Assembly: GCA_963749155.1 (NCBI GenBank)
Contig: CAVVLO010000003.1
Span: 515,352-579,351, forward strand
DNA length: 64,000 nt
Direction of reading: 5' to 3'
Source of the DNA: an uncultured Armatimonadia bacterium
Lineage (GTDB): Bacteria; Armatimonadota; Zipacnadia; CAVVLO01
The notes under the pieces were generated by a model that worked only from the letters and a program-made list of their open reading frames with translations, was not told where the DNA came from and ran no database searches. The position numbers were made by a program, and so were the translations under genes. Position 1 is the first letter of the stretch. Each line of letters starts with the position of its first letter. Of the stretch, positions 1,436-62,448 are shown piece by piece.

Positions 1436-1609
1436 TATTGTCTCTGTCGGCTCCGTTGTATCGGGCCACTCTTGTCCCGATACCAGGGCTAAGGCCCTGC
1501 GCGTCTACCTCTTCCTCAGCTTCACGGCGAGGAAGATGACGCAGCAAGCCCGCCAAGGCGGCGAGGGCGTAGGGTATGGATTGTTGTTGAGATTTATCCT
1601 GCACATTCG

Positions 1610-19785: not shown

Positions 19786-19890
19786 GCACAGGGGGATGTT
19801 CCCCCTGTACCCCCCGATTCGCTTCGCGCCGCAGGCCCAGTTTGGGGGTGCAGGGGCAACTCGTGAGCTTTGCTCACGCCGCCCCTGCGC
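19786..19890. repeat. REP-like palindrome cluster 1 (inverted pair of GGGGT(G/A)CAGGGG...CCCCTG elements)
   Basis: CAGGGGG-atgtt-CCCCCTG and GGGGGTGCAGGGGC...GCCCCTGC. The reverse complement of the left part matches 33277-33324, including CTGCGGCGCGAAGCGAA. Confidence 0.7.
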
Positions 19891-19900
19891 TTTTCGGTCC

Positions 19901-20818
19901 TTATCTCTCTTCAAGCCACTCGTGGTAAGGTCTGGTTGTGCCATCGAGCAATACGAAAGGCATATAGCCTTCCCACGGGCGGGTGGCGTTGCAGTCGGTG
20001 CGTTCTCTGGAGCCTGTCACGAACCGCCCACTTACCATCTGCCACGCCTGCCAGCCGATGCCAAAGCGCTCGAGCGTCTCGATAGAATCCTTCGCCAGCA
20101 GTCCGCGCTCATAGTCGTCCAGCGAGCCGACGCAACATTCGGTCGCGATGAGGGGTTTGCCGTATTCCGCAGCGATGGCAAGGTGGGCTTCACACTGGAC
20201 TGTCATCTCACCGAGTTTGCGCGTATAGGGATGGAAGCTGATGACATCTACCAGCGGCGCATAGAGGCGCACGTTATCCGTGAACATCGTCCCGATGGTG
20301 ATTGGCTGGGTCGCGCGCTGACGTAGCTGGTTACTGGCCCAGGCGAGCCAGGCGAACTCCTTCAGATTGACGTCCACAGCCTCCCAGGGGGCCTGCGGCT
20401 CGTTGCACAGGTCCCAGCAGAGGATACGTTCGTCTTTACCAAAGCGGTCTGCCAGTGCTTCCACATAGGGGCGGAAGGCCCGGAAGCCGTAATCGGCCCG
20501 CAGCAGCACTTCGTTCGGCACTCCACCCGCCGGGTAGAGCTGGTCGGTCCAGCGATTGAAGAGGACGGGCATCGCCTTGAGGCCGTTTGCGTCCAGAATG
20601 CAGAGGGCTCGGTCCAGCGCGTCCAGCTTCGCGTCCCCCACTGCAAGGAAGGCGCTCCAGTCGAGCCAGAGCCGGAGGCAGTTGCTCCCAAAGCGCAGCG
20701 CCCAGGGCACCTCCCGCTCCCACACCTCGGGCTGGAAGTGGGTCCAGGTATATTGCAGATGAGCACTGTAGCTGGGCATATAGTTGAAACCGCAGAGCTT
20801 GCTCCAGTCGTGGTCCAT
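19901..20818 (-). CDS. GH-A clan (GH5-like) glycoside hydrolase
   Basis: [21 protein letters not shown] (acid/base), DVISFHPY and KPLIATEC (nucleophile). Confidence 0.8.
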
Positions 20819-20928
20819 CTCATCGCCTCCCAGAGGCTTCGATTCGCCCTCACAGGCCTTTCTCCCTGCAGGAAGAGAGGCAGCTAGTGCGAATACCCTC
20901 CGCGAATCTGTTCCAATTGGAGGCACTT

Positions 20929-21363
20929 ATGCTTAAAGGTATCTCGCCGCTTATCAGTCCCGAGCTGCTGGAGGTGCTGGCGCGGATGGGTCACGGCGAT
21001 TCAATCGTGCTGGCCGATGCGCACTTCCCTGGGGAGTCCGTCTGCAAGCGCGTCGTCCGCGCCGATGGCCTGCGCATACCCGACTTGCTGGACGCCATCC
21101 TGCCCCTGTTCGAGCTGGACAGTTATGTCGAGGCGCCGCTCGTGATGATGGCCCCGGTGCCCGGCGATTCCCTCGATCCGACGGTGGAAGCCTCCTACCG
21201 GGCCGCGGTGGACCGCCATGCGCCCGCTACCGCGCCGATTGCGCGTATCGAGCGGTTCGAGTTCTACGAACGCGCCAAGGCGGCTTTCGCTGTCGTGATG
21301 ACGGGCGAACTGGCCAAGTACGGCAACATCCTGCTAATCAAGGGAGTCACCCCTGTCGAGTGA
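20929..21363 (+). CDS. fucU: L-fucose mutarotase / D-ribose pyranase (RbsD/FucU)
   Basis: [39 protein letters not shown] and [16 protein letters not shown]. Confidence 0.92.
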
Positions 21364-21381
21364 CCTGAAGGAGGAAGTCCA

Positions 21382-22149
21382 ATGCTCAACCTGTCCCCTT
21401 GCGTGGAGATGTTTTGGCACGACCTGCCCTATGAGGAGCGCGCCCGTAAAGCCGCCCAACTGGGATTCAAAGCTTTTGAGTTCTGGGGTTATGGCAACAA
21501 AGACTTCGAGGCCCTGAAGCGCGTGATGGGCGAGACGGGCATCAAGCTCGCGGCTTGCGGACTGACTGGCCCTGCGACCTCCATCCTGCTGCCGGAGGGC
21601 GTTGCCGGCTTCATCCAGGCTGTGAAGGACTGCATCTCCGTCTCTGAGTCACTCGGGGTGACGACTTTCATCGTGACGACAGGCAACGAACTGGAAGGGG
21701 TCCCGCGGGAGCTTCAGCGCGCGGCCCTGGTCGGTTGCCTCGAAGCGGGCGCGCCCGTGGCCGAGGATGCGGGCCTGACGCTGGTGCTGGAGCCGCTCAA
21801 CCTGCTCGTAGACCACGCCGGCTATTATCTTGCTTCCAGCTACGAGGGGTTCGAGATAATTGGTGAGGTGGGCAGCCCGGCCGTGAAGCTGCTTTATGAC
21901 ATCTACCACCAGCAGATAACGGAAGGGAATCTGGTGCCGCACTTCCTGGCCGAGATCGACAAGGTGGGCCATTTCCACTCGGCCAACCACCCGGGGCGCT
22001 TCGAGCTTTCCAACGGTGAGATCAACTACCCCTATGTGCTCGGGGCAATCAGAGACAGCTCCTATACCGGCTATGTGGGAATGGAATACCGCGTGAGCGA
22101 CCCCGCCCGCGCGGACGAACTTGTCGCCGAGGCGCTGAGCCTGGCGTAA
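21382..22149 (+). CDS. Hydroxypyruvate isomerase / sugar isomerase family TIM barrel (AP_endonuc_2)
   Basis: GFKAFEFW, LVLEPLN, LLYDIYHQQITEG, HFHSANHPGRFE and YVGMEY. Confidence 0.85.
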   Translation: MLNLSPCVEMFWHDLPYEERARKAAQLGFKAFEFWGYGNKDFEALKRVMGETGIKLAACGLTGPATSILLPEGVAGFIQAVKDCISVSESLGVTTFIVTTGNELEGVPRELQRAALVGCLEAGAPVAEDAGLTLVLEPLNLLVDHAGYYLASSYEGFEIIGEVGSPAVKLLYDIYHQQITEGNLVPHFLAEIDKVGHFHSANHPGRFELSNGEINYPYVLGAIRDSSYTGYVGMEYRVSDPARADELVAEALSLA

Positions 22150-22159
22150 GGCAACTAAC

Positions 22160-22665
22160 GGGGTGCAGGGGCAAATTGCCCCTGCGGTTTTCGGCTCTGA
22201 TTCCAGGGCTTGAGGAAAGGCGCGAGGTTGGTGTTTCGGTGGCTTCGTCTCGAAACCGGCCATGGCCTCTCGGCACGTCGTAGGGGCGGGTCTGAGACCC
22301 GCCCTGTCTTTACGTTTGTTTATCAGCAATTGGCTGGTTTCGGCCCTGAAGAGACCGAAACACCAGCCGCGAGAACCTCGCCGATGCTCGATTCACTCGG
22401 TAAAAGTGCGGGGCGCAGGGGTATTACCCCTGCACCCCGTATTGGGAAGAGGTTGGTGTTTCGGTGGCTTCGTCTCGAAACCGGCCATGGCCTCTCGGCA
22501 CTTCGTAGGGGCGGGTCTGAGACCCGCCCTGTCTTTACGTTTGTTTATCAGCAATTGGCTGGTTTCGGCCCTGAAGAGACCGAAACACCAGCCAGGAGAA
22601 CTCGCAGATGCTCGATTCACTCGGTAAAAATGCGGGGTGCAGGGGACGCGCCCTTGCACCCCGTC
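22160..22665. repeat. REP-like mosaic cluster 2, containing a 225-bp tandem duplication
   Basis: Units start at 22224 and 22449. Each holds GTAGGGGCGGGTCTGAGACCCGCCC, two GTTTCGG...CGAAAC hairpins and a GCAGGGG...TGCACCCC hairpin. Confidence 0.9.
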
Positions 22666-22692
22666 TGGGTCAGACTCCACTTATTGTTTAGG

Positions 22693-23121
22693 TTAGTTCC
22701 ACGGCCAGGGCAAGTCGCGGTCGTCATCATCATCGTCGTCCCGGTCGTCCCAGGGCCAGTCGTCATCATCGCTGTCATCGTAGCTGCGAGGCGTATAGTT
22801 TGGCAGTGTGCGAGCCTCGACGAACTTCAGGGTACGGGCATCGAACTGATAAACCGCGCCGCCCCGGATGAGATAGAGATAACGCTCATTGGAAGTTGCG
22901 ATGACGTTGCCGCTGTTCCAGGCAGGCCCGCCATAGGGATTGTTCCCCTTGCCCTGAGTGAGCACCAGGGGCGCCTGGTCGCTTGTCACCGAAGCCAGCA
23001 TCGCCATTCCTTGCAGGTCGGCTTTGGCTGAGTGCGAGGCCTGATACTTGCCTCCATACCAGGCTCCGACAGCCACGAAAAGCAACACTACAGCAAATAT
23101 CAAAAGAGTCTTCTTTTGCAT
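22693..23121 (-). CDS. Small membrane-anchored/secreted protein with Asp/Trp/Pro-rich tail
   Basis: GAGGTGGAG RBS, hydrophobic N-terminus and the C-terminus DDSDDDDWPWDDRDDDDDDDRDLPWPWN. Confidence 0.7.
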   Translation of the reverse strand: MQKKTLLIFAVVLLFVAVGAWYGGKYQASHSAKADLQGMAMLASVTSDQAPLVLTQGKGNNPYGGPAWNSGNVIATSNERYLYLIRGGAVYQFDARTLKFVEARTLPNYTPRSYDDSDDDDWPWDDRDDDDDDDRDLPWPWN

Positions 23122-23249
23122 CTTGCTCCACCTCTTTATGCGGTAACCCCGTTGCCTGGCTTTTACGCAAACACAGGGTCGGCCGCTTGGCTCTGTTGAT
23201 CTAGGATACCCAGTTTGGGGAAGGTAATATCAGGTTGATGATATGCCAG

Positions 23250-23483
23250 TTTCCGGTTTCGGGAGCAGAGACTCCCGAAACACGCGGAGAGTGAGGTCTA
23301 TTCGCTCTTGATGGCGCAGAAGGGTGCAAGGGTGGAACCCTTGCACCATCGAAGGGAGGGGCGCAGCAAGCTCCCGAAACACGCGGAGAGGCAATCCTGG
23401 CTGGTGTTTCGGCGGCTTCAGCCCCGAAACCAGCCAAGGCTCTGTGTGAGGAGGCTGGGCGGGTCTGAGATTCGCTCCCTTAC
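23250..23483. repeat. REP-like mosaic cluster 3
   Basis: CTCCCGAAACACGCGGAGAG twice, GGGTGCAAGGGTGGAACCCTTGCACCATCG, GGCTGGTGTTTCGG...CCGAAACCAGCC, and a degenerate GGGCGGGTCTGAGA element overlapping the sulfatase stop. Confidence 0.85.
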
Positions 23484-25062
23484 CCAAGCTCCGAGGCCGC
23501 GCACCGCTCGAGCAGCGGGTGAGAGAGGCTCTCCATCCAGTCCAGCAACTCCTGGCGCAGTTTTTTCGCCTGAGGCAGATGACGCGCGCGGTCTGGATTT
23601 GTCCCTAGCAGGTTGTTTACCTCATGCGGATCGGCCTCGAGGTCGAAAAGCAGGTCTGGCGCCTTGTCATGGGGGTACCAGACATACTTCCACTCGTGGG
23701 AGGCGATCAGGCTCCAGCGCGCCGGCTCTGCCCAGCCCAGCTCGGAGAAGGTATACTCCGTGCGCCCGTCGCGTCGGCCCTCGATCAGTGGTCGCAGGCT
23801 CTGGCCGTCCATCTCCCCCGCCGCAATCCCCAGATAATCCATCACCGTTGCGGGGATATCCACCGTGTTCACAGGCTGATCTATGACTGTCCCGGCGGGG
23901 ATGACGCCCGGCAGCCGCATTAGCAGCGGCACGCGGACGGATTCCTGATACGGGACGAACTTCTGCGTCAGCCCGTGGTCGCCGAGTTGCTCGCCGTGGT
24001 CCGCGCAGAAGACGACCAGCGTCCTGTCGGCGATGCCAAGGTCATCCAGCGCGCGCAGGATGCGCCCAACCTGGAAATCCACCTCGGCAATCAGCTCGAA
24101 ATACCGCGCGCGGAAGAGCTTCATATTGCGCAGCTCTACCTCGTCGAGTTGCCAGTTGTTTTGAACATAAAGCGTATTGGCCCGGTCGTGGTGCATCGTT
24201 GCAGGCAGGTCCATTGCATCCGGAGAGATACTTCCCGCGAACTGCTCGGGCACGTACCAGGGATGATGCGGCGAGAGGAAGGCCGCTGTAATCGAGAAAG
24301 GCTCTCCCGCAGAGCGCCTGATGGCCTCGACGGCTGTCTCCCCCGTCCAGCCAGTGAAGGTATGGCGAGTCGGCAACGAGTAGACGCCATACTGGCAGTT
24401 GAACTGGGCATGCGGAGTATCCTTGAGTTCCTCCTGGGTCAGGTCCATCGTGTAGGGGCGGCCGGAGATGATACTTTTACCTTCTCCGGAACCAGGCGGA
24501 CGGGCAGGCCCGAGGATATGGTCCAGGTGGCGCTGATAAGGCGCAGCAAACTTTTCGGAGACCTCGTTCGCGTAGCAATCGGTCAGGCTGAGATGACCGT
24601 GCCAGCGCCCGTGATACTCGGTATGGTAGCCCTGACGAGCCAGTTGCTGGTCATAGCTGCCAGCGCGGAAGTCGCAGTCTGCAGCATCGATTTTCGTGTT
24701 TATGGTGCAACCGCTGGTGTGGACCGTCTGACCCGAATGGAAGCAACTGCGGGCGGGGACGCATTCTGGCTGCGGCGTGAAGGCATAGGAGAAGCGCACT
24801 CCCTCGCGCGCGAGGCGGTCAAGGTTCGGCGTGTGGACATAGGGACTGCCCGCGCAGCTCAGCGCGTCGGCGCGCTGCTGGTCGGTGTTGATGAAGAGGA
24901 CGTTCAAGCGGCCCAGCTCCTTCTTTCGACAGACCCTGCTGCCGAAGCGAGCGCATCCGGCAGGATGGTCATCCCGAGGGCAAGCCCTCCAAGCCCCGCC
25001 AGCCCTCGCGTTAGGAGTTCTTTCCGAGTGATGTCACGCCCTGCACCTGTTGCAGCCCTCAT
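23480..25062 (-). CDS. Tat-exported sulfatase (Cys-type), frameshift near 24905-24920
   Basis: RBS AAGGGAGG, leader ITRKELL...GLAGLGGLALG, NVLFINTDQQRAD, CVPAR, ADHGE and LFDLEADPHE. Confidence 0.85.
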
Positions 25063-25138
25063 CGCTGCACCTCCCTTGTTCGGAGAAGACTTCGGCACAG
25101 GATGCGCATCTCCCCCCTCGGCTGCTGTTTTGGGAGAT

Positions 25139-25752
25139 GTATCGGGAACTTGTTCCCGATACATGCGGCTTAGGCTGATCCAGCAGAAAGCTGGGCGGGT
25201 CTCAGACCCGCCCCTGCATAAAGCGAAAGACCAACCCCTCGGCTGGTGTTTCGGGTTCCTGACCGAAGGTCAGGCATCTGCTCACGAAACCAGCCAAGTA
25301 TATCAGATAAAAGCTGGGCGGGTCTCAGACCCGCCCCTACTCTCGATGGTGCAGGGATCTTATCCCTGCACCTCGTTAACTGTTCGACTTGGGTGCAAGG
25401 GTAGAACCCTTGCACCATCGAGGCTAGTTACCGAGCGTACAAGCGAAAAGCGCTGGGGCAGGGGCAAGACCTACCCCCGGCTGGTGTTTCGGGTTCCTGA
25501 CCGAAGGTCAGGCCTCTGCTCACGAAACCAGCCAAGGATCTCTGAAAAAGCTGGGCGGGTCTCAGATCCGCCCCTACTCTCGATGGTGCAGGGATCTGTA
25601 TCCCTGCACCTCGTTAACTGTTCGACTTGGGTGCAAGGGTAGAACCCTTGCACCATCGAGGCTAGTTACCGAGCGTAGAAGCGAAAAGCGCTGGGGCAGG
25701 GGCAAGACTTACTCCCGGCTGGTGTTTCGGCGGCTTCAGAACCAAAATCAGC
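25139..25752. repeat. REP-like mosaic cluster 4 with a 238-bp tandem repeat (two full units plus partial flanks)
   Basis: GGCTGGTGTTTCGG recurs at 25241, 25479 and 25717. Each full unit holds a GGGCGGGTCTCAGA(C/T)CCGCCCCTAC element and an inverted pair CTCGATGGTGCAGGGA...TCCCTGCACC / GGTGCAAGGGTAGAACCCTTGCACCATCGAG. Confidence 0.9.
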
Positions 25753-25890
25753 CTTTGAAAAAATCTTTTGTAAATTCTCAGCAACCAATCCGCCAATTTT
25801 GGCTTTCTGGCACGCTTCTTGTGTAGATATAAGCCCCGGGTGGGAGGGGGTTTGGGATGGGATTTTGAGAGGTTTTCGTCCAGATTTGGC

Positions 25891-25998
25891 AACGCTTTCG
25901 ATACAAGCTGTTAGCGAGATCGCTAGCGGCCCCGAAGATTTCTCATCTGGTGCTAGTCAGAACGCCTTCGATACAAGCTGGTAGCGAGCTGCTAACGG
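25891..25998. repeat. Imperfect ~38-bp direct repeat, 70-bp period
   Basis: AACGCTTTCGATACAAGCTGTTAGCGAG... at 25891 and AACGCCTTCGATACAAGCTGGTAGCGAG... at 25961. Confidence 0.7.
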
Positions 25999-26185
25999 TT
26001 CTACCAGGGGACAAAGAAAAACTCCAGAAGCGATGTAAGCGAAATCCTCGAGTCGTCACTGCAGCTCCGTTTGGCGCCACTTGAGCCACCCCAGGCAGGA
26101 ATCTCCCTCCTTTGCGCCAACAATTCTAGGCTTAAAAAGGCAGAAAGCGGCGCTCCAGAACCGCTCTATAAAGGTGGAGAGGCAG

Positions 26186-28739
26186 ATGAACAGGTTCCTC
26201 AAAACGATAAAGACCCTTTGGATGCTTTCGATGCTTCTGGTTGGGCTTGCAGGATTGACCTGCTATGTGATGGCCGCTGAGCTACTCCCCTATCAGGATC
26301 CCTCCCAGCCTGAGGCCAGGCGCGTAGCTGACCTGCTGGGCAGGATGACGCTTGAGGAGAAGTTCAGCCAGATGGGTCATAGCGCACCAGCTATCGACCG
26401 GCTGGGTATCGCCGCTCACAACTGGTGGAGCGAAGGCCTCCACGGGGTGCTGACGGGCGGTATCACGGTCTTCCCGCAGGCAATCGGGATGGCCAGCACC
26501 TGGAATCCAGAGCTCATCCACGAGGTCGCGACCGCCATCTCGGATGAGGCGCGAGTGAAGCATATGCAGGGCGCTGTCGGCCTGACCTTCTGGAGTCCAG
26601 TCATCAATATCGGGCGAGACCCGCGCTGGGGGCGCACTGAGGAAGGCTACGGCGAGGATGTCTATCTGACTTCGCGGATCGCCGTCGCCTTCGTAAAAGG
26701 CTTCCAGGGAGACGATCCGCGTTATCTCAAGCTGGTCTCCACTCCCAAGCATTTTGCCGCCAATAATGAGGAATACAGGCGCGCTAATGGTTCTTCGACC
26801 GTGGATGAGCGCTCGCTTAGAGAGTATTACTTCCCAGCTTTCAAGACCTGTATTACTGAAGCGGGCGCCCAGTCGGTTATGTCAGCTTACAATGGCCTGA
26901 ATGGCGTCCCTTGCACAGGCAACGAGTGGCTGCTTACCGAGGTGCTGCGCAAGGAATGGGGCTTCGATGGGTATGTGGTGTCGGACTGCGATGCCGTAGG
27001 GCTTATCCGCGATGGCCATCATTATGTGGCCACCCACGCAGAAGCCGCGGCGATGGCCCTTAAGGCAGGCTGCGACCTTAACTGCGGATCGACTTATCAG
27101 ACCTCCCTCCACGAGGCGCTAGCTCAGGGGTTGATAACGGAAGCCGACCTCGATCGCGCGCTTGGGCGTCTGATGGCAGCCCGATTCAGGCTTGGGATGT
27201 TCGATCCGCCCGAACTGGTCCCCTATACGCGTATCTCGCCGGACGTCGTTGGCTCAAAACAGCATGTAGAACTGGCCCGAGAGACGGCGCGACAGTCCAT
27301 CGTGCTGCTTAAGAACGACCCGCTACCTGCTACCGGCAAGCCCTTGCTTCCCCTCGACCCGAAAAAGCTCAAATCGGTGGCGGTGCTCGGGCCTAACGCA
27401 GCGGTATGCCGGTTCGGGGGTTACAGCGGCAGTCCGCTCAATCCCCCTGTCTCCCCACTTGATGGCATCAAGGCCGCCGCTGAGGGCAAGTTCGCTGTGA
27501 ATTACGTCTCCTACTCGCTGGAGGAGGTCATCCCCACCGAGTATCTGCGTCCTGCCGAGGGTGAGGGCCAGGGGCTTACGGGGCATTACTTCGACAACAG
27601 CGAGCTGGCAGGGCAACCGGTGCTTGTCCGCCTCGATGCCAAAGTCGACTTTATGTGGGGCGATGGTTCTCCGGATGCGAAAATCAAAAACGACAACTAT
27701 TCGGCGCGCTGGACTGGCAAGCTGATTGCTCCGCGTTCTGGAGTCTATCGCCTGGGCGCGACGACCGATGATGGCGTGCGCTTGTGGCTCGATGGCAAGC
27801 TTCTTGTCGACCAATGGCACGAGCGCGGCGCCGCCACTGATCTGGCCAGCGTCACCCTCGAGGCCGGCCAGAGTTATGACTTGCGGATGGACTACTACGA
27901 AGCCGGCGGGACAACCGCTGCCAGGCTGGTCTGGGTGATGCCCAATCAGGCCCAGCCCGATGTCAGCCAGGACGATGTAAGCATCGTGGTGCTTGGCCTC
28001 GACAGCAGTATTGAGGCGGAAGGCAACGACCGCGAGACTCTAGGTCTGCCCGAAGACCAGGAGGCCTACATCAAGACTGTAGTCGCCTCCAATCCGCGCA
28101 CGGTCGTGGTACTGGTGGCCGGCAGCCCCGTCGCCATCAACTGGATCAAAGACTCACGTGCCGGCGGTCATCCAGGCCTGGTACCCAGGCGAGCAGGGCG
28201 GCAACGCCATCGCGGACGTGCTGTTTGGGAAATACAATCCCGCCGGCAGACTGCCGATGACCTGCTATCGGTCGCTCTCGCAGCTCCCACCTTTTGATGA
28301 CTACGATGTCACGAAGGGGCGCACGTATATGTACCTCGAGAAGTCGCCCCTCTTCCCCTTCGGCCATGGGCTGAGCTACACCAGTTTTGCCTATTCCAAC
28401 TTGAAAGTAAGCCCGAAGACCACTTCGGCGACCGGCACGGTGAAGGTAAGCCTGGACGTAACCAATGTCGGCGACCGCGACGGCGATGAGGTGGTGCAGC
28501 TCTACACGCACGATGTGGAATCGAGCGTGAAGCAGCCTCTCAAGCAACTCAGGAGCTTCCAGCGCCTCTCCCTGCGGAAGGGCGAGACTCGCCGAGTGAC
28601 CTTCAACCTGGCCGCGGCTGACCTCACCTACTGGGATGTAGATAAGGATGCCTTCGTTGTGGAGCCAGGCGAATTCGACATACTCGTCGGCGCCTCCTCA
28701 AGTGACATCAGGCTGAGGGACAAGATAACGATCAAGTAG
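26186..28739 (+). CDS. Secreted GH3 beta-glucosidase/xylosidase with PA14 insert and C-terminal Fn3-like domain (frameshift ~28155)
   Basis: WWSEGLHG, RDPRWGRTEEGYGED, KHFAANN, YVVSDC, PA14 YSARWTG...TDDGVRLWLDG, and then AWYPGEQGG and PFGHGLSYT in ORF 28158..28739. Confidence 0.92.
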
Positions 28740-28752
28740 GAAGCCCTGATAT

Positions 28753-28987
28753 GGGGGTGCAAGGGTAAAACCCTTGCACCATCGAGGCTAGTTGGCGAGC
28801 GTAGAAGGCGAAAGGCGCAGGGGATGTGGTCAGGATCTCTCGATGGTGCAGGGATTGCATCCCTGCACCTCGTTAGTTGTCCGGCTTGGGTGCAAGGGTA
28901 AAACCCTTGCACCATCGAAGTTTTTTGCCCTCTGGTTTCGAGGACGTGTCACCGTTTGTTTCGGGAGCAAGCTCCCGAAACACGCGA
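28753..28987. repeat. REP-like mosaic cluster 5
   Basis: GGGTGCAAGGGTAAAACCCTTGCACCATCG twice, GATGGTGCAGGGATTGCATCCCTGCACC and GTTTCGGGAGCAAGCTCCCGAAACACGCG. The linkers resemble those of cluster 4. Confidence 0.9.
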
Positions 28988-29000
28988 TGAGTGGAGAGCC

Positions 29001-30257
29001 TTACTCCAGCCCGTAGAACTTCGCGGGGTTGTCGTGGAGCCAGGCCTTGCAGATGAATTTCGCGCCGTCGAGATCGAGCTTGCCACTCGCGATACGCTCC
29101 GCCAGGGCCTCGGCGATAGTCTCCCTCGCCATTACGAGATGGCCGTAGACGTTTTCCACCGCCCAAGTATAGTCACCGCCGAAACCAAACACCTTGTTCA
29201 CGGGCACGGTGTCCAGCAGTTCAGTGATGCTCCGGCGGGTTATCTCCTGGCTGACCGCGTAGCACCAGCCCAAATTGAGGTGGACGTTGGCAAAGCTCTT
29301 GGCGAGGAATATGGCCTCGCGCGCATAGGGCATCCCCAGGTGATAGACATCCATCCTGAGCGCTGGGTAATGCTGAGCCAGCCCGATGACATGCTCCGGA
29401 TGCAGGGGGCGGAAATCACCCCAGACGCCGGTGTGGATGGCCACTGGCCAGTCCCACTCCGAGGCCTTGCGTAGCACCCAGTCGCGCACCGTTGCCGCCA
29501 GGACAGGAGTCGCAGGCTTGCCAGTTTTGACATCCAGGTAGGCGGCGCGAGCGTCGCTGGTATCCGCTGACGGAAGGCACAGTGCGCGCAACTTGAAGCC
29601 AACCGCACCGGCGGCTCGGGCTCGCTGGAGACAGCCTTCGTAGGCTTCCAGGTACTCGTCCAGCGATGCCAGCTCCTTTCCGACTTCCTCTTCGAGTGAG
29701 TGGAGGAAGGTCAGACTGCCGAAGTCCACACTGGCGTCGTGCCTGAAGAGGGGCGTGAGCAGGTCCGGGGGATCCTGCCCCTCTACCTGGCCATTCTGTA
29801 CCAGGGCTGTGCGGAGGTTGCACTTGTCGCGCAGGATCCGGTGATAAAGGCCCTTCGTATTGGCGGCCTGCAACCGCGCGGAGACCTCCTGGTAGTTGGA
29901 GTCACCAAGACCTTCGATGTCGAAGAGGTCGCGCAAGGCGATGGCGCTCGGGCGATAGTAGGTGCCAAAGTGTATCTGCTGCAGCCAGGGCCAGGCGAGC
30001 TTCCAGCGCTCTTCCAGCGGTATGGTCGTATCCAGGAAGAAGTTTCTGTTTCTGCCGCTGGCAAGGCCCTCGGTGGGCATCCCGGCACTCACCGCGTCCA
30101 CGAAAGTGTACTGATAGAAGAGCGTCAGCACATCGACTTGCCTCTCGACCCGGCGATACTCGGGCACAAGATGCTCGTGACAGTCCACACTGGTAAGCCC
30201 GCTCAGCCAGCCGATAAGGTCATCGCGGACTTGCTCATAGCGGGCCGAAAGGTTCAT
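29001..30257 (-). CDS. Amidohydrolase-superfamily protein (uronate-isomerase-like), tandem copy 1
   Basis: MNLSARY start, metal motif DCHEH, HTG, YHLG, FGFGGD and HDNPAKFY. Confidence 0.85.
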   Translation of the reverse strand: MNLSARYEQVRDDLIGWLSGLTSVDCHEHLVPEYRRVERQVDVLTLFYQYTFVDAVSAGMPTEGLASGRNRNFFLDTTIPLEERWKLAWPWLQQIHFGTYYRPSAIALRDLFDIEGLGDSNYQEVSARLQAANTKGLYHRILRDKCNLRTALVQNGQVEGQDPPDLLTPLFRHDASVDFGSLTFLHSLEEEVGKELASLDEYLEAYEGCLQRARAAGAVGFKLRALCLPSADTSDARAAYLDVKTGKPATPVLAATVRDWVLRKASEWDWPVAIHTGVWGDFRPLHPEHVIGLAQHYPALRMDVYHLGMPYAREAIFLAKSFANVHLNLGWCYAVSQEITRRSITELLDTVPVNKVFGFGGDYTWAVENVYGHLVMARETIAEALAERIASGKLDLDGAKFICKAWLHDNPAKFYGLE

Positions 30258-30289
30258 CGGTGAAGGCTCCTTTGCCCAAGGTGAAACGA

Positions 30290-30468
30290 TGCTGCCCCTG
30301 CGCCAGCGGCGCCCTCTCCCCTGGCGTGTATCGGGAGCTTGCTCCCGATACCTCCTCCGGGCTTTAGGATCGTAGTAGGGGCGGGTCTGAGACCCGCCCA
30401 GTTTTTTGCCCTCTGGTTTCGAGGACGTGTCACCGTTTGTTTCGGGAGCAAGCTCCCGAAACACGCGA
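30290..30468. repeat. REP-like mosaic cluster 6 between the amidohydrolase copies
   Basis: GTATCGGGAGCTTGCTCCCGATAC, GTAGGGGCGGGTCTGAGACCCGCCC and GTTTCGGGAGCAAGCTCCCGAAAC. Confidence 0.85.
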
Positions 30469-30481
30469 TGAGTGGAGAGCC

Positions 30482-31738
30482 TTACTCCAGCCCGTAGAAC
30501 TTCGCGGGGTTGTCGTGGAGCCAGGCCTCCGAGATGAATTTGGCGCCGTCGAGATCGAGCTTGCCACTCGCGATGCGCTCCGCCAGGGCCTCGGCGATAG
30601 TCTCCCTCGCCATTACGAGATGGCCGTAGACGTTCTCCACCGCCCAGATGTAGTCCGCGCCAAACCCGAACACCTTGTTGACCGGCACCGTGTCCAGCAG
30701 TTCGTTGATGGTGCGACGAGTTATCTCCTGGCTGACCGCATAACACCAGCACAGGTTGAGGTGCACGTTGGCGAAGCTCTTGGCGAGGAAGACAGCCTCG
30801 CGCGCATACGGCATCCCGAGGTGGTAGACCTCCATCCGGGTGCCTGGATGGCGCATAGCCAGGTCGATGACATTTTCCGGCTGCATCAGACGGAAGTCGT
30901 TCCACACGCCAGTGTGGATTGCGATAGGCCAGTCCCACTCCCCGGCTTTGCGAAGCACCCAGTCGCGTACCGTGCCCGCCAGGACAGGCGCCGCGGGCTT
31001 GCCGGCCTTTACCTCGAGATAGGCGAGACGGGCGGCGTCCATATCCGCCTGGGGAAACACCAAAGCGCCGATCTTGAACCCCACCGCGCCGGCTGAACGC
31101 GCCTTCAGGAGGTGCGTTTCGAAGGCTTCGAGATACTCGTCCAGGGTCGCAAGGGGCTTCCCCACTTCCTCCTCCAGCGCCGAGAGGAACATCGTATGGC
31201 AGAAATCGTAGCTTGCGGTGTTGCTGAAGAGGGGCGTGAAGAGGTCAGCGGGGTCCTGCCCCTCCACCATACCGTTCTGCACGATGGCGGTGCGGATATT
31301 ACACTTGTCGCGCAGGATGCGGTGATAGAGGCCTTTGGTGTTGGCGGCCTGCATCCGCGCGGAGATTTCCTGATAGTTATCCTCGCCCAGTTCTGTCACA
31401 TCGTAGAGGTCGCGCAAGGCGAGGGCACTTGGGCGATAATAGGTGCCAAAGCGGATCTGCTGCAGCCAGGGCCAGGCGAGCTTCCAGCGCTCTTCAAGCG
31501 GCATATTGGTGTCGAGGAAGAAGTTCCCTCCGATGCCGTTTGCCAGGCCTTCGGTCGGCATCCCGGCGCTCATCGTGTCGACGAAGGCGTAGAGCGAGAA
31601 CAGTGTCAGCACATCTACCTGACGCTCCAGACGGCGGTATTCGGGGACCAGATGCTCGTGGCAGTCGATGATGGTGAGGCCGCTCATATGCGCGATGAGG
31701 TCGTTCCGGGCTTCTTCATAGCGGTTGGAGAGGTTCAT
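30482..31738 (-). CDS. Amidohydrolase-superfamily protein, tandem copy 2
   Basis: MNLSNRY start, DCHEH, HTG, YHLG and FGFGAD. Collinear with copy 1 at an offset of 1481 bp. Confidence 0.85.
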   Translation of the reverse strand: MNLSNRYEEARNDLIAHMSGLTIIDCHEHLVPEYRRLERQVDVLTLFSLYAFVDTMSAGMPTEGLANGIGGNFFLDTNMPLEERWKLAWPWLQQIRFGTYYRPSALALRDLYDVTELGEDNYQEISARMQAANTKGLYHRILRDKCNIRTAIVQNGMVEGQDPADLFTPLFSNTASYDFCHTMFLSALEEEVGKPLATLDEYLEAFETHLLKARSAGAVGFKIGALVFPQADMDAARLAYLEVKAGKPAAPVLAGTVRDWVLRKAGEWDWPIAIHTGVWNDFRLMQPENVIDLAMRHPGTRMEVYHLGMPYAREAVFLAKSFANVHLNLCWCYAVSQEITRRTINELLDTVPVNKVFGFGADYIWAVENVYGHLVMARETIAEALAERIASGKLDLDGAKFISEAWLHDNPAKFYGLE

Positions 31739-31909
31739 TACTAAGGACTCCTTTCCATCAGGCAAATATTTGGTCACTAATTGCGATGTTAGCCCATAGA
31801 AAAGGTATTAAGCAAGGAAGGGAAAACGCCAATCTAGGGTAAAATGGAAACAGCAGACCGCCAGTTGCCCGACGGGCTGGTGTAAGAGTGTGCCAAGGGG
31901 AGGGTTCTG

Positions 31910-32820
31910 ATGCGCAAATTTTCAACTGATTGGGCGCGCCTTATCGCTTTAATGGTCGCGCTCAGCCTTAACGCTTCTCATTGCCGCCGGTTGCGGCGGA
32001 GGCGGGGGCACAAGCGCCACTCCGCTGACTGTGGACGAAGCGGCCACGCTAACACGGGAAGCAAGCTCGCCCACCGGACCGCTACCACCCGAGCTCGAGA
32101 GCACTTTTATGGAAGTGCTGGTCATCAGCGGGGGCGCATATCTTGACAGCAAAGCGGCCGAGGCGCGGGCAATTGGCGAAGATTATGATTTCACAGTAAA
32201 CGGTATCCACTTCGTGGGCGCAAGTTCGGTGGACGACCTGACGGGCGCCATCTCGGGCAGTGGCACCATCCAGGGCACGCTGGCAGGCACGGACACCCCT
32301 GCTGACGGGACTGTAGTGGACCTAACCCACAGCTTCAGTATGTGGCTCTCCTTTACCCAGACAGTCGCTGGCAGTATCACCCCGCCAGGCGAGCCCACTT
32401 ACGGCATCGACAGAACCTGGGAAGGCACTTTTAATGGCTCTGTGGCGGCTTTTACAGACGAGACAGAACTCACCTATGATGGAGTCTGGGTCTTCCGCAA
32501 CTCCCTCGAGATGACAGTTGACGTAACGGGCGAGGACTTCGTACTGACGCAGGACGGCACCTCTGAGGCGCGCAAGAGCGATGACTCAGGGGCGGGAGTA
32601 GAAGTAGTCTTCGACCAGGTGAGTTATTATCTGGACGATGATTTCCAGCCGTATTATACGGCGGGCACTATCAGCGTCGAGAGTTATGATGGATACACTG
32701 CCGAATTGACAGTGCAGCCTGATGGCACGATGCAGGGCGACCTCGTACGATCCGGCGGATGTGCTGGTTGGCACGCTCACGCTGGAGGGGTGGCTCCTCT
32801 CCTTCGTCGAAGTCGTCTAG
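31910..32820 (+). CDS. Acidic beta-rich lipoprotein of unknown function (frameshifts near 31970 and ~32750)
   Basis: RBS GGGGAGGG. MRKFSTDWARLIALMVALSL joins ...LLIAAGCGGGGGTSATPLTVDEAA in the frame of ORF 32031.. onward. Confidence 0.6.
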
Positions 32821-32842
32821 CAACTTGCCGAACAAGTGAAGC

Positions 32843-32876
32843 AAAAAGCCCGGGCCAAAGTGGCTCGGGCTTTTTT
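32843..32876 (+). terminator. Rho-independent terminator
   Basis: AAAAAGCCCGGGCC-aaagt-GGCTCGGGCTTTTTT. Confidence 0.8.
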
Positions 32877-32890
32877 ATGGCGTCTTTCCC

Positions 32891-33330
32891 TCTGGTTTCG
32901 GCCCTGAAAGGGTGCAAGGGTAGAACCCTTGCACCATCGGTTTTCAAGGGTCTGATGGTGCAGGGGCTCGGCCCCTGCACCTTATGGTTTCGGGAACAAG
33001 TTCCCGAAACACGCGGTAGGCGTCTGGCATCGGCGCGTCGAAGGGGCGGGTCTGAGACCCGCCCAGCCTTCTCGCGTGCTCTCTCCGAAGGGTGCAGGGT
33101 GACCGTGGTCTGGAGACCCGCCCAGCCTTTCTCGCGTGCTCTCTCCGAAAGGGTGCAAGGGTAGAACCCTTGCACCATCGGTTTTTGGAGACCCGCCCAG
33201 CCTTTATTTGTGTGTTTTGAAAGGGTGCAAGGGTAGAACCCTTGCACCATCGGTTTCTGGAGACCCGCCCAGCCTTCTGCGGCGCGAAGCGAAACCGGGG
33301 TGCAGGGGCGAGTCGCCCCTGCGCTCTTCC
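32891..33330. repeat. REP-like mosaic cluster 7
   Basis: GGGTGCAAGGGTAGAACCCTTGCACCATCGGTTT three times, GAGACCCGCCCAGCCTT four times, GTTTCGGGAACAAGTTCCCGAAAC and GGGGTGCAGGGGCGAGTCGCCCCTGC. Confidence 0.9.
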
Positions 33331-33344
33331 CCAGATTTGGGCGC

Positions 33345-44487: not shown

Positions 44488-46007
44488 CTATTCTCTCGGT
44501 CCGAGATCGCGCAGGTCTTTGGTCGGCGGCCGGTAGTAGATAGGGAGGCGGGCCACCAGGGCATCTACCCCCAGATAGAAGCCTGTCGACTCAGCGCTCT
44601 TCCCCGTGCACTCGAAACGCAGCGTATGCGGCCCGGCGGCAAGCTCGCGGTAACCGAGTTTGTGGTCCTGGACTACTGTAGAGGGATCATATACGTCCCA
44701 TACGCCGACTTCTTCGCCATCAAGCAGCACCCGCCACTTGCCATAATCGTAGGAATGGACCACCGCAAGACGAGGCTCGCCCTCGAAGGCCTCCTCCAGC
44801 GTAAAGGGCAATTCCAGGAAAGCCCCTTCCGCCTGGCCCCGGAAGAAGAGCTGCGCCCCTCCGCTGCAGATGCCAAGCTGCTGAACGACCAGGTCGCCTT
44901 CGGAGTGCTGCGCCGCCTCGAAACTGCTTTCCGCCTCGAAAAGGGCGCGCTCGGTGAAGGGCAACCGCTCCGCTGCCGTCGGCAGCGCGGGCCAGGGCTT
45001 GTGAGGCTCGCTCTGGTACCAGTAGGCGACACTGCTCATCAGGTCGTCGCGCTCGATGTGGCCCGAGACCTCACCGCTTGGATGCGCATACCAGCCACGA
45101 TGCTCGATTGTCACGCGCAGCGACTTGGTGAAGTTTACCGGATCGGCGATATGCCAGCGATAGGCGCTGCCCCGGTCGCCCGCCTCATAGCCTTCCCACA
45201 CGGGCGTGCCATAATACGGGCCATCCTGCACGCGGAAGCCCCAGGCATCGCAGAAGTAGTCTTCCGTGCCTGTACCCTTGAGCCGGGCGTCCTCTTCCCC
45301 ATCGATGAAGAAGGCGTCATCGCCCTCCCCATACCATTCGCCGGACATCAGATAGACACTTTGCACAGTGCCTACGTAATGGCCCTTGCCCCGGATATCG
45401 GCAAGCTCGTAGTCCCGCTGCATCACGCAGGGATACTCCTGCCTGTACATCGCGTGGAAGTAATAGCTGTCGGGCGGCAGCTCATCAAGCTTCTGCCAGT
45501 CCACATAGTAATAGAAGGCGCGACAGGGCTCGGAAGACTCGTTGGTGACCTCGATGCGCGCCGACTTGGCGAAGGGCATCGGCCAATAGCAGTTGCGCGC
45601 CCGGCCATCGGAGCTGACCTTCACCGGAAGCGAGGTAAAGGCGACGTCCATCCCGTTGCCGATACCGAAGAAATCGCCAATTGGACACTCTACACTCGGA
45701 TGCTTTTCGCCGTCCCACCAGATACGCAGCACCATCTGGCGCGAGTAGAAACGCGCCGGGTGGTTGATGGTGGTCCATATATGCGTGATCTTGCCCGGTC
45801 CTTTCAGGTCGGCCAGGACCAGCGTTGAGCCTGGGTCCATCCACCTGCAGTCGGCGTTGCCCCCGGTCGGGTCGAAGGACGATTCGCGCATCGTATCGCC
45901 GGGCTTGGCGCGTTCAAGCCCCCCAGGGGGTCGCCCAGCGGGCCATCGGCAGAAGCAAGCAGGGCGAAAAGCAGCAGCAGGAGAATCAGAGGGAGCAAGC
46001 TGGGCAT
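44488..46007 (-). CDS. Secreted GH172 (DUF2961) glycoside hydrolase, copy A (frameshift ~45910)
   Basis: Signal MPSLLPLILLLLLFALLASA, GPGKITHIW, NCYWPMPF, WYGEGDD and GTGTEDYF, plus an extra C-terminal beta domain. Confidence 0.88.
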
Positions 46008-46070
46008 AAGGCATCGCCTCCTGAACTCTGGGACTGCCTTCTTGTTCGCCGGCCTGGAGGGCTCTCCTGC

Positions 46071-46108
46071 AAAACAAAAGGCCCCCGGTACTTGCCGGAG
46101 GCCCTTTG
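46071..46108 (-). terminator. Terminator between the two GH172 genes
   Basis: Minus strand AAAGGGCCTCCGG-caagta-CCGGGGGCCTTTTGTTTT. Confidence 0.65.
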
Positions 46109-46129
46109 GACACTCTTTTGCCTGAATTT

Positions 46130-47654
46130 CTACTTGGCTTGCAGGTCGCGCAAGTCCACGCTCGGGTCGCGAGAATAGACCGGCTCGCGCAACAGGATGA
46201 CGTCGAAGCCCAGGAAATAGCCCCGCGAGTCGAGATTCTTGCCCACGCACTCGAAGCGCAAAGTGTGCTGCCCAGCCGTTAGCGTCTGCAAGGGCAGCCT
46301 GTGCTCGTCCTTAACCACATTTTCACTGTACAGATCCCAATTTCCAAGTGGCTTGCCATCCAGCAGGGCGCGATATTTGCCGTAGTCCCAGGATTTGACC
46401 ATCTGGATGACTGGCTGGCCTTTTATCTCCTCGGGCAGGTTGAAGGTGACCTCAACCCAGGCGTCCTGGTCGGTCGGGTTGAAGAAAAGCTGCTTGCCGC
46501 CGCTCATCTCGCCCAGGTCCTGGGTTGTGAGCACATGCTCGGAATGAGTGGCGCCCTCGACCAGGCTCTCCCCCTCCACCAGCGCGCGTTCGGTAAAGGG
46601 CAACCGGTCCTTGCCCGGCGGGCAGCGCGGGCCAGGGCTTATGAGGCTCGGTCTGATACCAGTAGGCGACGCTGCTCATCAGGTCGTCGCGCTCGATAAA
46701 GCCGCTAAAAGTGCCATCGGGGAAGCTCTGCGAGCCCCAGTCCTCGATCTCGACACGCAGAGACTTCTCGAAAGCCACCGTATCAGCGATATGCCAGCGA
46801 TAGGAAGTGCCTCTGTCTCCGGTGTCAAAGCCTTCCCATACGGGCGTGCCATAATAGGGCCCGTCCTGTTCGCGGAAACCCCAGGCATCGCAGAAATAGT
46901 CCTCGGTGCCAGTGCCGCGCAGGCTTGGTTCAGCCTCCCCATCGATGAAGAAGAAGTCATCTCCCTCTCCATACCAGCCGGGGGAGGTGTGATAGACGCT
47001 TTGCACCGTGCCAACATAATGCCCCTTGCCCCGGATATCGGCCAGGAGATAGTCGCGTCCCATAATCGTGGGGTATTCCTGGCGATACATCGCATGGAAG
47101 TAAGGCGTGCCCTTGGGCAGGCTGGGCAGTTTCTGCCAGTCTACATACCAGAAGAGTGCCTGGCAGGGTTCATCGCAGTCGTTGGATACTTCGATACGCG
47201 CAGACTTCGCAAAAGGCATCGGCCAATAGCAGTTTCTCGCGCGCCCATCCGAGCTGACCTTCACCGGCAGCGAGACGAAGGGGACGTCCATCCCGTGGCC
47301 GATGACGAAGAAATCACCAATCGGCGCCTCGACACTGGGATTCTTTTCCCCATCCCACCAGATGCGCAAGGTCATCTGCCTCGGGTGGAAACGCGCCGGA
47401 TGCATAATAGTGAACCAGATATGCGTGATGCGGCCTGGGCCTTCGAGTTCGGCGATTGTAAGACTCGAATTAGGCCCGATGCCCCTGGCGTCTCCGTTGC
47501 TGTGGTACCAGCCAGGATCTGATGAAGACGAACGCAGCGTCTTGAAGTCTTTGGGCGCATCCAGTCCTTGAAGCGGGTTGCCCGTCAGCGCCTGCGGCAG
47601 CGCCAGCGCCGCGAAAGTCAGAAGCAACAAGGCAGTAATCAAGGCAGTTCTCAT
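46130..47654 (-). CDS. Secreted GH172 (DUF2961) glycoside hydrolase, copy B (frameshift ~46610)
   Basis: Signal peptide, GPGRITHIW, NCYWPMPF, WYGEGDD and GTGTEDYF. The C-terminal domain is in ORF 46130..46603. Confidence 0.88.
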
Positions 47655-60930: not shown

Positions 60931-62448
60931 TTAGCCCTTCTCGAAACGCAAAGTCGTGATAGAGGCCATCGGCAACTCCAGCGCCTTGATGTCCACGCCG
61001 ATAAGCTTCATCGGGCGCACGGCCTGAGGTTCCTCGAAGGTGTTATGCGAGTGGAGGTCCATCCCGCCAAGCTGAGTCGCCTCGGCCAGTTTCCAGGGCA
61101 CTCCATCGCGCAGCAGCAGCGCGCCTTGGACAGCTTCCGCATGGTCGAGATTCACAAGTGAGATGAAGAGTTCGGTGCCATCGTCGTTCACGCTGCAAGA
61201 GACTGACAGCGAGTCGCGCTCAGGCGCGTCAGGCAGTGAGAGGCGTTTGGCCCCAAGCGTCTCCGAGGCCACCAGCCACCCGTCCCGGTGCGGCTTGAAC
61301 AAATCGTAAACATGATAAGTGGGCGTGGCGATAGCCTGCTTGCCCTTCGTCAGCACCAGCGCCTGCAGCACGTTCACGGTCTGGGCCATATTGGTCATCG
61401 CCAGGTCCTCTCCATGCTCGTGGAAACAATGGAAACTCGCCGCCGCGAACAGCCCGTCCATCATTGTGCTGTCCTGGTACATACCGCTCTCGACGACAGC
61501 CTCTTTGTACCAGGTGCCCCACTCGTCCAGCACGACGCCGATGGGATGGCCGTACCAGCTATAAGCGCGCGCAAGGCCGATGGTCTTCTTCAGATAGCGG
61601 TCCATTATCGAGATCTGCCCGATAAGCCTGTAGTAGTCTTCCGTCTTGAAGGCGATATCGGATATCCCCCCGGCCGAGTAGATATGGATGGCCAGGTAAT
61701 CCACCAGGTGCAGGGCGCCCTTCATCGTGTCGAGGAAGCGCTCTTCCCAGTCGGGGATGCCCGCATGCGAGCCGGAGGCGATAAAGCTTGCACCAGGGCC
61801 GGCGGTCTGCTTCATATAGGTGGCGTACTGGCGATAGAGATCAGCGTAGTATTCAGGCCGCATCGAACCGCCGCAGCCCCAGTTCTCGTTGCCGACGCCC
61901 CAGTATTTGACACCATAAGGCGCCTCGTGACCGTTCTCTTTTCGCTGCCTGGTGATGGTCGTGTCCTGAGCGGAGTTGCAGTACTCGACCCAGCTTGCGG
62001 CCTCTTGCACAGTGCCGCTGCCCACATTGGCGCAAAAATACGGCTCAGTGCCGATGAGCTTGCAGAAGCGCATAAACTCGTCGGTGCCAAACTGACAGTC
62101 CTCGGACTGGTTCCACCACAGGTTGTGGCGCTGCTTGCGCCCCTCGCGAGGACCGATACCGTCCTGCCAGTGGTAGTTATCGGCAAAACACCCCCCAGGC
62201 CAGCGCAATACGGGAAGCTCGAGCTTGGCGAGCAATTCGACCGTATCCAGGCGGATACCGCCCTCGTTTTCTATCTCCTTGTGGTCGCCGACCCAGATGC
62301 CTCGCTCCACGCACCGGCCGATATGCTCGGCGAAGTGACCGTAGAGATTGCGTCTCAAGCGGTGCCGGCGCACCTCGGGGTGGACTCGAACGGTAACTTT
62401 GCTGGTAGCAGCAGGGGCCGCTTCAATTATCTGAGATTTTCGAGCCAT
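60931..62448 (-). CDS. abfA: Alpha-L-arabinofuranosidase, GH51
   Basis: YGHFAEHIG, RWPGGCFAD, WGVGNENWGCGG, LDEWGTW and AQTVNVLQ. Confidence 0.93.
   Translation of the reverse strand: MARKSQIIEAAPAATSKVTVRVHPEVRRHRLRRNLYGHFAEHIGRCVERGIWVGDHKEIENEGGIRLDTVELLAKLELPVLRWPGGCFADNYHWQDGIGPREGRKQRHNLWWNQSEDCQFGTDEFMRFCKLIGTEPYFCANVGSGTVQEAASWVEYCNSAQDTTITRQRKENGHEAPYGVKYWGVGNENWGCGGSMRPEYYADLYRQYATYMKQTAGPGASFIASGSHAGIPDWEERFLDTMKGALHLVDYLAIHIYSAGGISDIAFKTEDYYRLIGQISIMDRYLKKTIGLARAYSWYGHPIGVVLDEWGTWYKEAVVESGMYQDSTMMDGLFAAASFHCFHEHGEDLAMTNMAQTVNVLQALVLTKGKQAIATPTYHVYDLFKPHRDGWLVASETLGAKRLSLPDAPERDSLSVSCSVNDDGTELFISLVNLDHAEAVQGALLLRDGVPWKLAEATQLGGMDLHSHNTFEEPQAVRPMKLIGVDIKALELPMASITTLRFEKG

Follow-up and report, generated by a model that had tools for sequence, protein, structure and literature searches.

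Why are the genes in one short part of a bacterial chromosome set apart by mosaics of small palindromes, and do those palindromes move the genes between them? The question is raised by a stretch of 64,000 nucleotides (the window; G000:C3:515352-579351) from the genome of an uncultured Armatimonadia bacterium, which totals 4.17 Mb in seven contigs. At 19.78-33.35 kb of the window lies a block of mostly unrelated single genes whose spacers hold three hairpin families, here called A, B, and C. The initial annotation likened these hairpins to repetitive extragenic palindromes (REPs) and proposed a recombination hotspot or cassette-shuffling system driven by HUH nucleases acting in trans. We assign a probability of roughly 0.85 to the reading that the spacers are clusters resembling bacterial interspersed mosaic elements (BIMEs), made of three REP families that were seeded in trans by REP-associated tyrosine transposases (RAYTs) and then grew locally. 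The data support REP-linked recombination but give no support to a cassette-shuffling system.

All seven of the named spacers (S1 to S7, Table 1) contain hairpins of these families in a map of perfect stems of at least 7 bp across the window, and together with shuffled sequences the map confirms that the spacers are mosaics of the three families far above chance. Module A (GGGCGGGTCT[C/G]AGACCCGCCC, up to 3 mismatches) has eight matches in the window, all at 22284-33064, and none in 100 shuffles. The module B arm (GGTGCAGGGG, up to 1 mismatch) has 50 matches against 8.75 expected, 40 of them within 19802-33308. The C pattern as first written (TTTCGG, 2-4 nt, CCGAAAC) finds no match at all, because the C stems are longer than first described, for example GTTTCGGGAGC-AA-GCTCCCGAAAC; bulged long forms occur too. 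Predicted DNA folding energies were -10.4 to -17.8 kcal/mol in 15 of the 17 elements folded and -5.2 and -7.5 kcal/mol in the remaining two, the shuffle means being -1.2 to -8.9. The elements had been described as confined to the block, and 26 of the 27 catalogued in the window do lie inside it, the other being a solitary C-type hairpin. Four of the seven spacers separate convergent genes, two separate genes that run in the same direction, and S4 lies between divergent genes. According to the open reading frame (ORF) table and the hairpin map, the sole other block spacer longer than 100 bp is the divergent one upstream of amidohydrolase 2 (31778-31910), and in the map it is free of hairpins of the three families.

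As short repeated palindromes with stems of 7-12 bp and stable folds, all three families have the basic form of REPs, and the stem variants of B and C carry compensatory changes (the B1 stem is GCAAGGG/CCCTTGC). The unpaired one-sided GT[AG]G foot typical of REPs is found in family A alone, where 29 of the 31 copies genome-wide have a one-sided GTAG foot and none has a double foot. Family B was originally given a GATG tag; a foot does exist, as a one-sided CGAT in 28 of 29 copies genome-wide, so that it departs from GT[AG]G. The foot of family C is mostly (C/G/A)CGT. Family B lies outside the CGTC super-family of Di Nocera et al. 2013 (PMC3733652), in which, going by the sections of that survey on the super-family, stems begin with A-T pairs and CCA tails stand at the end.

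The hairpins can be enumerated for the whole genome. A de novo census yielded 698 distinct perfect hairpins with stems of at least 9 bp, and because the nine commonest arms all belong to A, B, or C, these three are the genome's sizeable hairpin-repeat families; one further small family (arm GGGAGGCCC) has five copies. A stricter catalogue, for which a first loose definition of C with about 200 chance matches in the reversed genome was tightened, contains 153 elements (31 A, 36 B, and 86 C) at 62 sites in the 4.17 Mb, with none on the 159-kb and 63-kb contigs. Families are mixed at 18 of the 62 sites, and all three occur together at 8. The local concentration remarked on initially is borne out by this count, since 31 of the 62 sites have a neighbor within 5 kb (random mean 8.5) and not one of 5000 permutations reached that number. 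The densest 100 kb hold up to 14 sites, compared with a random mean of 5.5 and a random maximum of 11. Two blocks totaling 32 kb, or 0.8% of the genome, contain 61 of the 153 elements (40%), 26 of them in the block described here and 35 at C1:417-435 kb. On a larger scale the REPs are concentrated in zones at C1:350-500 kb, C3:200-550 kb, and C2:1.30-1.50 Mb, and nearly REP-free DNA totals more than 1 Mb. Approximately 57 of 1,409 intergenic gaps of at least 80 bp hold an element, a figure that depends on crude GC3-based gene calls.

Three RAYT genes of the HUH/Y1 type are present in the genome, all on contig C1 and each flanked by A or C hairpins. Two statements of the initial annotation thus proved correct, namely that the hairpins are REPs, with RAYTs encoded in trans, and that the window itself encodes no HUH enzyme. 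Searches of the genome with Pfam PF01797, NCBIfam NF047646, and tblastn found no fourth RAYT gene. RAYT-A has GTAG-footed A copies on both flanks, and one in-frame A copy, encoding VGAGLRPA, between its HUH and Tyr motifs. An in-frame REP at this position is presented as unique to TnpA_REP subclass 2.4 (Bertels group 4) by Quentin et al. 2018 (PMC6006769) in the part that treats the subclass, where its REPs are described as long, the stem base consisting of three G-C pairs, and as scattered over many phyla. RAYT-A has the features of this subclass (NH[IFV]H, WQ, YIxNNP, and the in-frame REP), the fourth position of YIxNNP being different, and a 48% identical homologue labeled as Planctomycetota carries an in-frame REP dimer at the insertion site of RAYT-A. 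The sequence of RAYT-A matches subclass 2.4, with family A as its putative cognate. RAYT-C1 and RAYT-C2 score 95 and 88.6 bits against NF047646 REP_Tyr_transpos (cut-off 80); the former is flanked by bulged long C hairpins and the latter by the C subtype GTTTCGGGAG-6-CTCCCGAAAC. Their motifs (EHLH/DHLH, WK, and YIHFNP/YIHANP) most nearly resemble those of subclass 2.2 (DHLH, WE, and YIHYNP), and family C would be their cognate. REPtrons, in which a Y1 HUH gene is flanked by its own repeats, are accordingly present for A and C. A RAYT-like tblastn match within the window at about 60985-61185 (E = 0.18) was dismissed as chance; it contains in-frame stops and is antisense to a 505-aa ORF.

Family A is not peculiar to this genome. 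Its exact 22-nt core occurs in at least 120 places, in genomes labeled as many phyla, and 89 distinct cores in 80 such loci comprise 61 with a one-sided GT[AG]G foot, 18 with a double foot, and 10 with none, the flanks being unrelated. Five of these genomes have 59-104 A copies each, on many contigs in the two for which positions are listed, and RAYT-A homologues at 36-53% identity are found in three of the five. The letter-for-letter occurrence of family A across phyla is in line with the phylum spread published for subclass 2.4 in the corresponding section of PMC6006769. Judged by the same section, family A and RAYT-A are like subclass 2.4 REPtrons in the long REP with three basal G-C pairs and a GT[AG]G foot, the motifs of the enzyme, the flanking A copies, the in-frame REP, and the scatter over many phyla. 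They are unlike them in that RAYT-A has no canonical start and the foot is one-sided in nearly every copy. The copies here are also clustered, and they are few compared with those of the five other A-bearing genomes.

Once present, the clusters have evidently been enlarged in place. Tandem amplification had been claimed for the block and holds for units of 225 bp (x2 at 22224-22674; segments 98-99% and 82% identical), 238 bp (x2.1 in S4; 95% identical), and 60 and 72 bp (in S7). On contig C1, a B-C-A unit of about 202 bp is repeated at least three times at 429.3-429.8 kb and found again at 431 kb and 434 kb and, with similar linkers, on contig C6. These arrays show that clusters grow by local tandem duplication of multi-hairpin units, including linker DNA outside the hairpins. 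Recombination among hairpins is indicated by the chimeric hairpin of S3, in which a left arm of B type is joined to a right half of C type, and by half-A arms beside B1 in S7. Stem variants are regional as well. Eight of 11 B1 copies and all three B2 copies are in this block, jointly across four spacers, while 7 of 14 B0 copies are in the C1 block and 12 of 15 Cc copies are on C3, a distribution that shows short-range copying or conversion.

The two amidohydrolase genes of the block provide the clearest case of recombination at the hairpins. Their proteins are 78% identical, by which the genes are old paralogues, and the gene bodies have 39-57 identical columns per 60-column alignment window. 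Tracts of 94% identity (28919-29218 and 30400-30699) each follow immediately on a hairpin, of family B in the first case and of family A in the second, as expected from the claim that a gene duplication ends at the edges of the elements. The first 129 nt of these tracts are identical (28919-29047 = 30400-30528) and comprise linker, a C hairpin, and the last codons at the 3' end of the amidohydrolase; they look like the product of recent conversion or exchange. In a unit of 1,482 bp, one amidohydrolase gene is enclosed by identical REP-bearing repeats of 129 nt.

The 30 nearest genomes are related to this one at class level only, and among them families A and B are absent (0/30 each) and C is found in one. 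Scans of genome and metagenome contigs anchored on the sulfatase protein yielded no relative. Relatives 90-99% identical to the window were represented by Logan contigs from four metagenome runs belonging to four studies (X1, X2, X3, and X7). One X7 contig carries the small protein and sulfatase genes in the order and orientation of the window, with 205 nt of S3 (23268-23472) replaced by 28 nt, so that one C element is left there. Amidohydrolase 2 and the gene after it stand on another X7 contig, again in the same order and orientation, with the modules of S7 in a different order from the window. Both gene pairs are bridged by contigs of a relative that is approximately 92-95% identical. The change of gene order between clusters that shuffling would bring about across strains was thus not encountered: genes keep their order at every junction that is bridged, whereas the contents of the spacers change rapidly. 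In X1, one contig (depth 16.9, with a shorter side of 153 nt) runs from S5 straight into the 3' end of amidohydrolase 2, omitting 1,482 nt. The body of amidohydrolase 1 has no cover in X7 and is covered by X3 and by a lower-depth minor strain of X1. Judged by these contigs, some strains appear to have the amidohydrolase 1 unit and others to lack it. A further joint, 19837-33293 in X1 and X2 with three extra letters, would skip the whole block and was not used as evidence, because it has 28 nt on the shorter side and fits equally well an S1 allele in which the B3 hairpin has a simple loop as in S7.

We envisage that the RAYT HUH/Y1 single-stranded DNA nucleases encoded on contig C1 would seed single hairpins into permissive gaps that separate units of single genes, a trans step that draws on established knowledge of RAYTs. 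What follows is seen in the sequences themselves: a spacer with hairpins in it grows and is reshaped locally through tandem duplication of units and through recombination or conversion of hairpins and linkers, which keeps stem variants regional. REP-bearing repeats can in turn serve as substrates for unequal recombination by which a whole gene is gained or lost, as with the amidohydrolase 1 unit. REP-mediated duplications are known in enterobacteria. The genes of the block are, on this reading, ordinary genes of the chromosome rather than mobile cassettes. It is a speculative and on balance unlikely extension that REP-dense blocks are zones of short-range propagation, in which new hairpins of several families, the orphan CGAT-footed family B among them, are copied preferentially into spacers that lie no more than a few kilobases away and already hold hairpins, and the bracketed genes are prone to gain and loss; if so, a small REP population would locally drive variation in gene content between strains without dedicated cassette machinery.

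Several observations weigh against clusters seeded in trans and grown locally. With 31, 36, and 86 copies, the families fall short of the number given for classical REPs ("usually more than 100"), and the elements are strongly clustered in place of being spread genome-wide. The C count is moreover somewhat inflated, since the tightened pattern still detects 21 hairpins in the reversed genome. Most published REP families are dispersed, as far as the passages of PMC3733652 on their distribution go; the exception recorded there now has a second example, this time with several families, to which an orphan family with a CGAT foot is added. A RAYT gene flanked by the repeats of the family was found for A and C; for family B, the searches of the genome with PF01797, NF047646, and tblastn gave no cognate enzyme gene. 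The reading frame of RAYT-A is open for 206 codons and has CTG, not ATG, GTG, or TTG, where the 48% identical homologue has ATG, the first canonical start codon being 36 codons downstream; for this reason the enzyme may be inactive or decaying, or may use a rare start. The metagenome contigs are short and de Bruijn-assembled. A second contig that skips amidohydrolase 1, from X7, has only 20 nt on one side of its joint, and a contig through an exact repeat of 129 nt could in principle be a graph artefact. Lastly, the spread of stem variants could reflect either gene conversion or short-range transposition, which the data do not separate.

Were HUH nucleases to excise and re-insert whole REP-bracketed genes, the block would be a mobile cassette array, an idea to which we attach very little weight. 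Single genes are indeed bracketed by clusters, a REP-bounded amidohydrolase unit is apparently present or absent among related strains, and enzymes of the IS200/IS605 type move DNA between two hairpin ends. However, close paralogues of the 12 block proteins are absent from the other REP clusters, the tandem amidohydrolases being the sole close pair and an old one, and order and orientation are kept at both bridged junctions. The bracketing clusters are variable mosaics with tandem duplicates, not matched left and right ends, and the strain break at the amidohydrolases falls inside the 129-nt direct repeat, as unequal homologous exchange predicts. Of the hotspot or cassette shuffling first suggested, the recombination-prone spacers stand, with their arrays, chimera, and skipped amidohydrolase unit; no sign of shuffling was seen. 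Genes alternating with imperfectly conserved palindromic sites also recall an integron-like array, in which the palindromes would be attC-type sites for a tyrosine recombinase. This has practically no probability, being refuted by the lack of an adjacent integrase (the two Phage_integrase-family genes of the genome, at C1:143.8 kb and C2:1.11 Mb, are both away from contig C3) and by block genes that point both ways; the hairpins, too, are short and perfect and occur in multi-copy mosaics, not as one attC per cassette.

Regional REP-rich zones beside more than 1 Mb of nearly REP-free DNA, and a family A common to distant phyla, might instead suggest a horizontally acquired island whose REPs came with it from a REP-rich donor and did not spread here. 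We hold this to be highly improbable, as the block matches its flanks in GC content (0.585-0.622 per 2 kb), 25-kb windows rich in REPs do not stand out in tetranucleotide composition (Mann-Whitney p = 0.46), this same genome has the cognate RAYT genes together with matching REP subtypes, and local amplification is favored by B1 and B2, stem variants that are private to the block. We also consider it improbable that the hairpins are selected RNA or DNA signals, such as terminators, mRNA stabilizers, or protein binding sites, and that they cluster on account of a need of these particular genes. Most hairpins do stand 3' of genes, T-rich tails follow some of them (e.g., 30379-30399, then AGTTTTTTG), and such roles have been reported for REPs in other bacteria in the portion of PMC3733652 concerned with function. 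On the other hand, terminator-like sites are not enriched (13 versus 11.5 in shuffles), cluster S4 lies between divergent promoters, no Rfam family is found at gathering score, and near-identical tandem copies with rapid turnover between strains are more in keeping with selfish or neutral dynamics. The two readings are compatible, and a role for hairpins at transcript 3' ends is possible.

Compared with characterized systems, the clusters are like the REPs and BIMEs of Escherichia coli with TnpA_REP (subclass 2.2) in their hairpin groups joined by recurring linkers, their bulged long stems (the Cd subtype here), and RAYT-C enzymes that pass the REP_Tyr_transpos equivalog cut-off. BIMEs in E. 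coli combine variants of one family, whereas here recurring linkers and composite units are built from three unrelated stem families; the RAYT-C motifs deviate from those of E. coli TnpA_REP, and the population is far smaller. The GTAG-23 REPs of Thermomicrobium roseum, as portrayed in the section of PMC3733652 on that species, are a single family inserted into small target palindromes, unlike the three families here, for which no target palindrome was identified. The same survey, in its parts on multi-family genomes and on clusters, reports that several REP families can share one genome, each with its own REPtron, and that large REP clusters are built from tandemly reiterated units plus flanking DNA. 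The coexisting families with their own REPtrons in S. maltophilia (SMAG), P. fluorescens, and R. baltica are comparable to those described here, as is the interleaving of different repeat families in the mosaic intergenic regions of Neisseria (PMC3733652, in the passages on these organisms). Multi-family REP genomes in those passages have hundreds of dispersed copies, unlike the crowding here of 40% of some 150 elements into 0.8% of the genome.

Genomes with several REP families, REPtrons specific to one repeat, and clusters reiterated in tandem were known already from the parts of PMC3733652 cited above, and no new kind of element is revealed; the case is unusual mainly for few copies crowded into few regions. 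It offers a clean, small REP population, in a lineage without a close sequenced relative, for which all families and RAYT genes can be listed in full. Its regional clustering, block-private variants, and recurring three-family composites make it a convenient system for studying how REP clusters nucleate and grow, and it could also tell whether strains gain and lose genes because of REP-bearing repeats.

Table 1. Hairpin-bearing spacers, amidohydrolase genes, and RAYT genes (positions are those of the window unless a contig is named)
Feature	Position	Strand or gene orientation	Content
Spacer S1	19786-19900	convergent, iorB-like (+) / GH5-like (-)	B-like hairpin 19788-19808; B3 19850-19888 with small hairpin 19862-19878 in its loop
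Spacer S2	22150-22692	convergent	B3 22165-22185, then 225-bp unit x2 (22224-22448 and 22449-22674), each with a bulged long C; GTAG-footed A 22284-22304, 22509-22529; second long C 22332-22368, 22556-22594; B 22415-22433, 22633-22663
Spacer S3	23122-23479	between two minus-strand genes	C 23256-23281; B1 23323-23347; chimera (B-type left arm, C-type right half) 23357-23385; bulged long C 23398-23436; degenerate A (3 mismatches) 23457-23477
Spacer S4	25137-25753	divergent, sulfatase / GH3	Cc 25137-25164; A 25193-25213; 238-bp unit x2.1 (25227-25730) with long C holding an inner hairpin in each unit; unit A 25316-25336, 25553-25573; unit B2 25348-25372, 25585-25610; unit B1 25392-25416, 25630-25654
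Spacer S5	28740-29000	convergent	B1 28756-28780; B2 28845-28869; B1 28889-28913; C 28957-28982
Spacer S6	30294-30481	between the two minus-strand amidohydrolase genes	Cc 30328-30351; GTAG-footed A 30379-30399; second copy of 129-nt tract from 30400; C 30438-30463
Spacer S7	32821-33344	convergent	terminator-like hairpin 32843-32875; B1 32911-32935; B0 32957-32981; C 32987-33010; A 33044-33064; 60-nt and 72-nt tandem units 33049-33276 with half-A arms and B1 33152-33176, 33224-33248; B3 33302-33322
Solitary Cc-type hairpin	1459-1482		outside the block; arms GTATCGGG...CCCGATAC
Amidohydrolase 1 (Amidohydro_2)	29001-30293	minus	
Amidohydrolase 2 (Amidohydro_2)	30482-31777	minus	
RAYT-A	C1:88275-88838		motifs NHIH, WQ, YIKANP
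RAYT-C genes	C1:420.9-421.8 kb and 423.7-424.5 kb		2.7 kb apart, 60% identical

The genes of the block encode a GH5-like protein followed by RbsD/FucU and a xylose-isomerase-like TIM barrel, a 142-aa protein without a Pfam match, a sulfatase, a GH3 glycosidase, the two Amidohydro_2 proteins, and two others without a Pfam match. Single-base frameshifts split some of these genes, separating the sulfatase signal peptide from its body (24904-24910), interrupting the lipoprotein-like gene at 31911-32820 (at 31963 and 32747), and dividing GH3 into two overlapping ORFs (28158-28297). Contigs of related strains are one base shorter at 24909 (X3 and X7), 31963 (X1, X2, and X7), and 32747 (X7), and the frameshifts are probably indel errors of the assembly, not pseudogenes. 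A direct repeat of about 40 nt occurs twice upstream of the GH3 gene (25890-25998), the copies lying 70 nt apart and each holding a palindrome of the TAGCGA...TCGCTA type. The two copies look like operator sites of a regulator, and an X7 contig skips 99 nt in this region (25918 to 26018). Elsewhere in the window, outside the block, there is a 1,640-bp tandem duplication at 44981-47427 with copies 77-95% identical.

The second REP-dense block (C1:416000-435999) has the same architecture, with single genes, hairpin arrays, and the two RAYT-C genes. Its genes encode a GDSL lipase, a metallophosphoesterase, and GNAT, peptidase S51, Gfo/Idh/MocA, HisF-like, NAGPA, alpha/beta hydrolase, and LamG-like proteins. 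Cumulative GC-skew minima lie near some REP-rich zones, from which no conclusion is drawn because every contig has a minimum and the contigs are unordered. The REP-rich zone at C1:300-480 kb is a stretch of negative GC skew within an otherwise positive-skew contig, with the cumulative minimum at 478.5 kb, and could represent an inversion or be related to replication. A repeat family unrelated to A, B, and C, with a motif spacing of about 2 kb, is found mainly close to the ends of contigs (C1:961-982 kb, C4:130-158 kb, C6:50-59 kb, C3:676-679 kb, and C5:529-533 kb) and probably explains where the assembly breaks.

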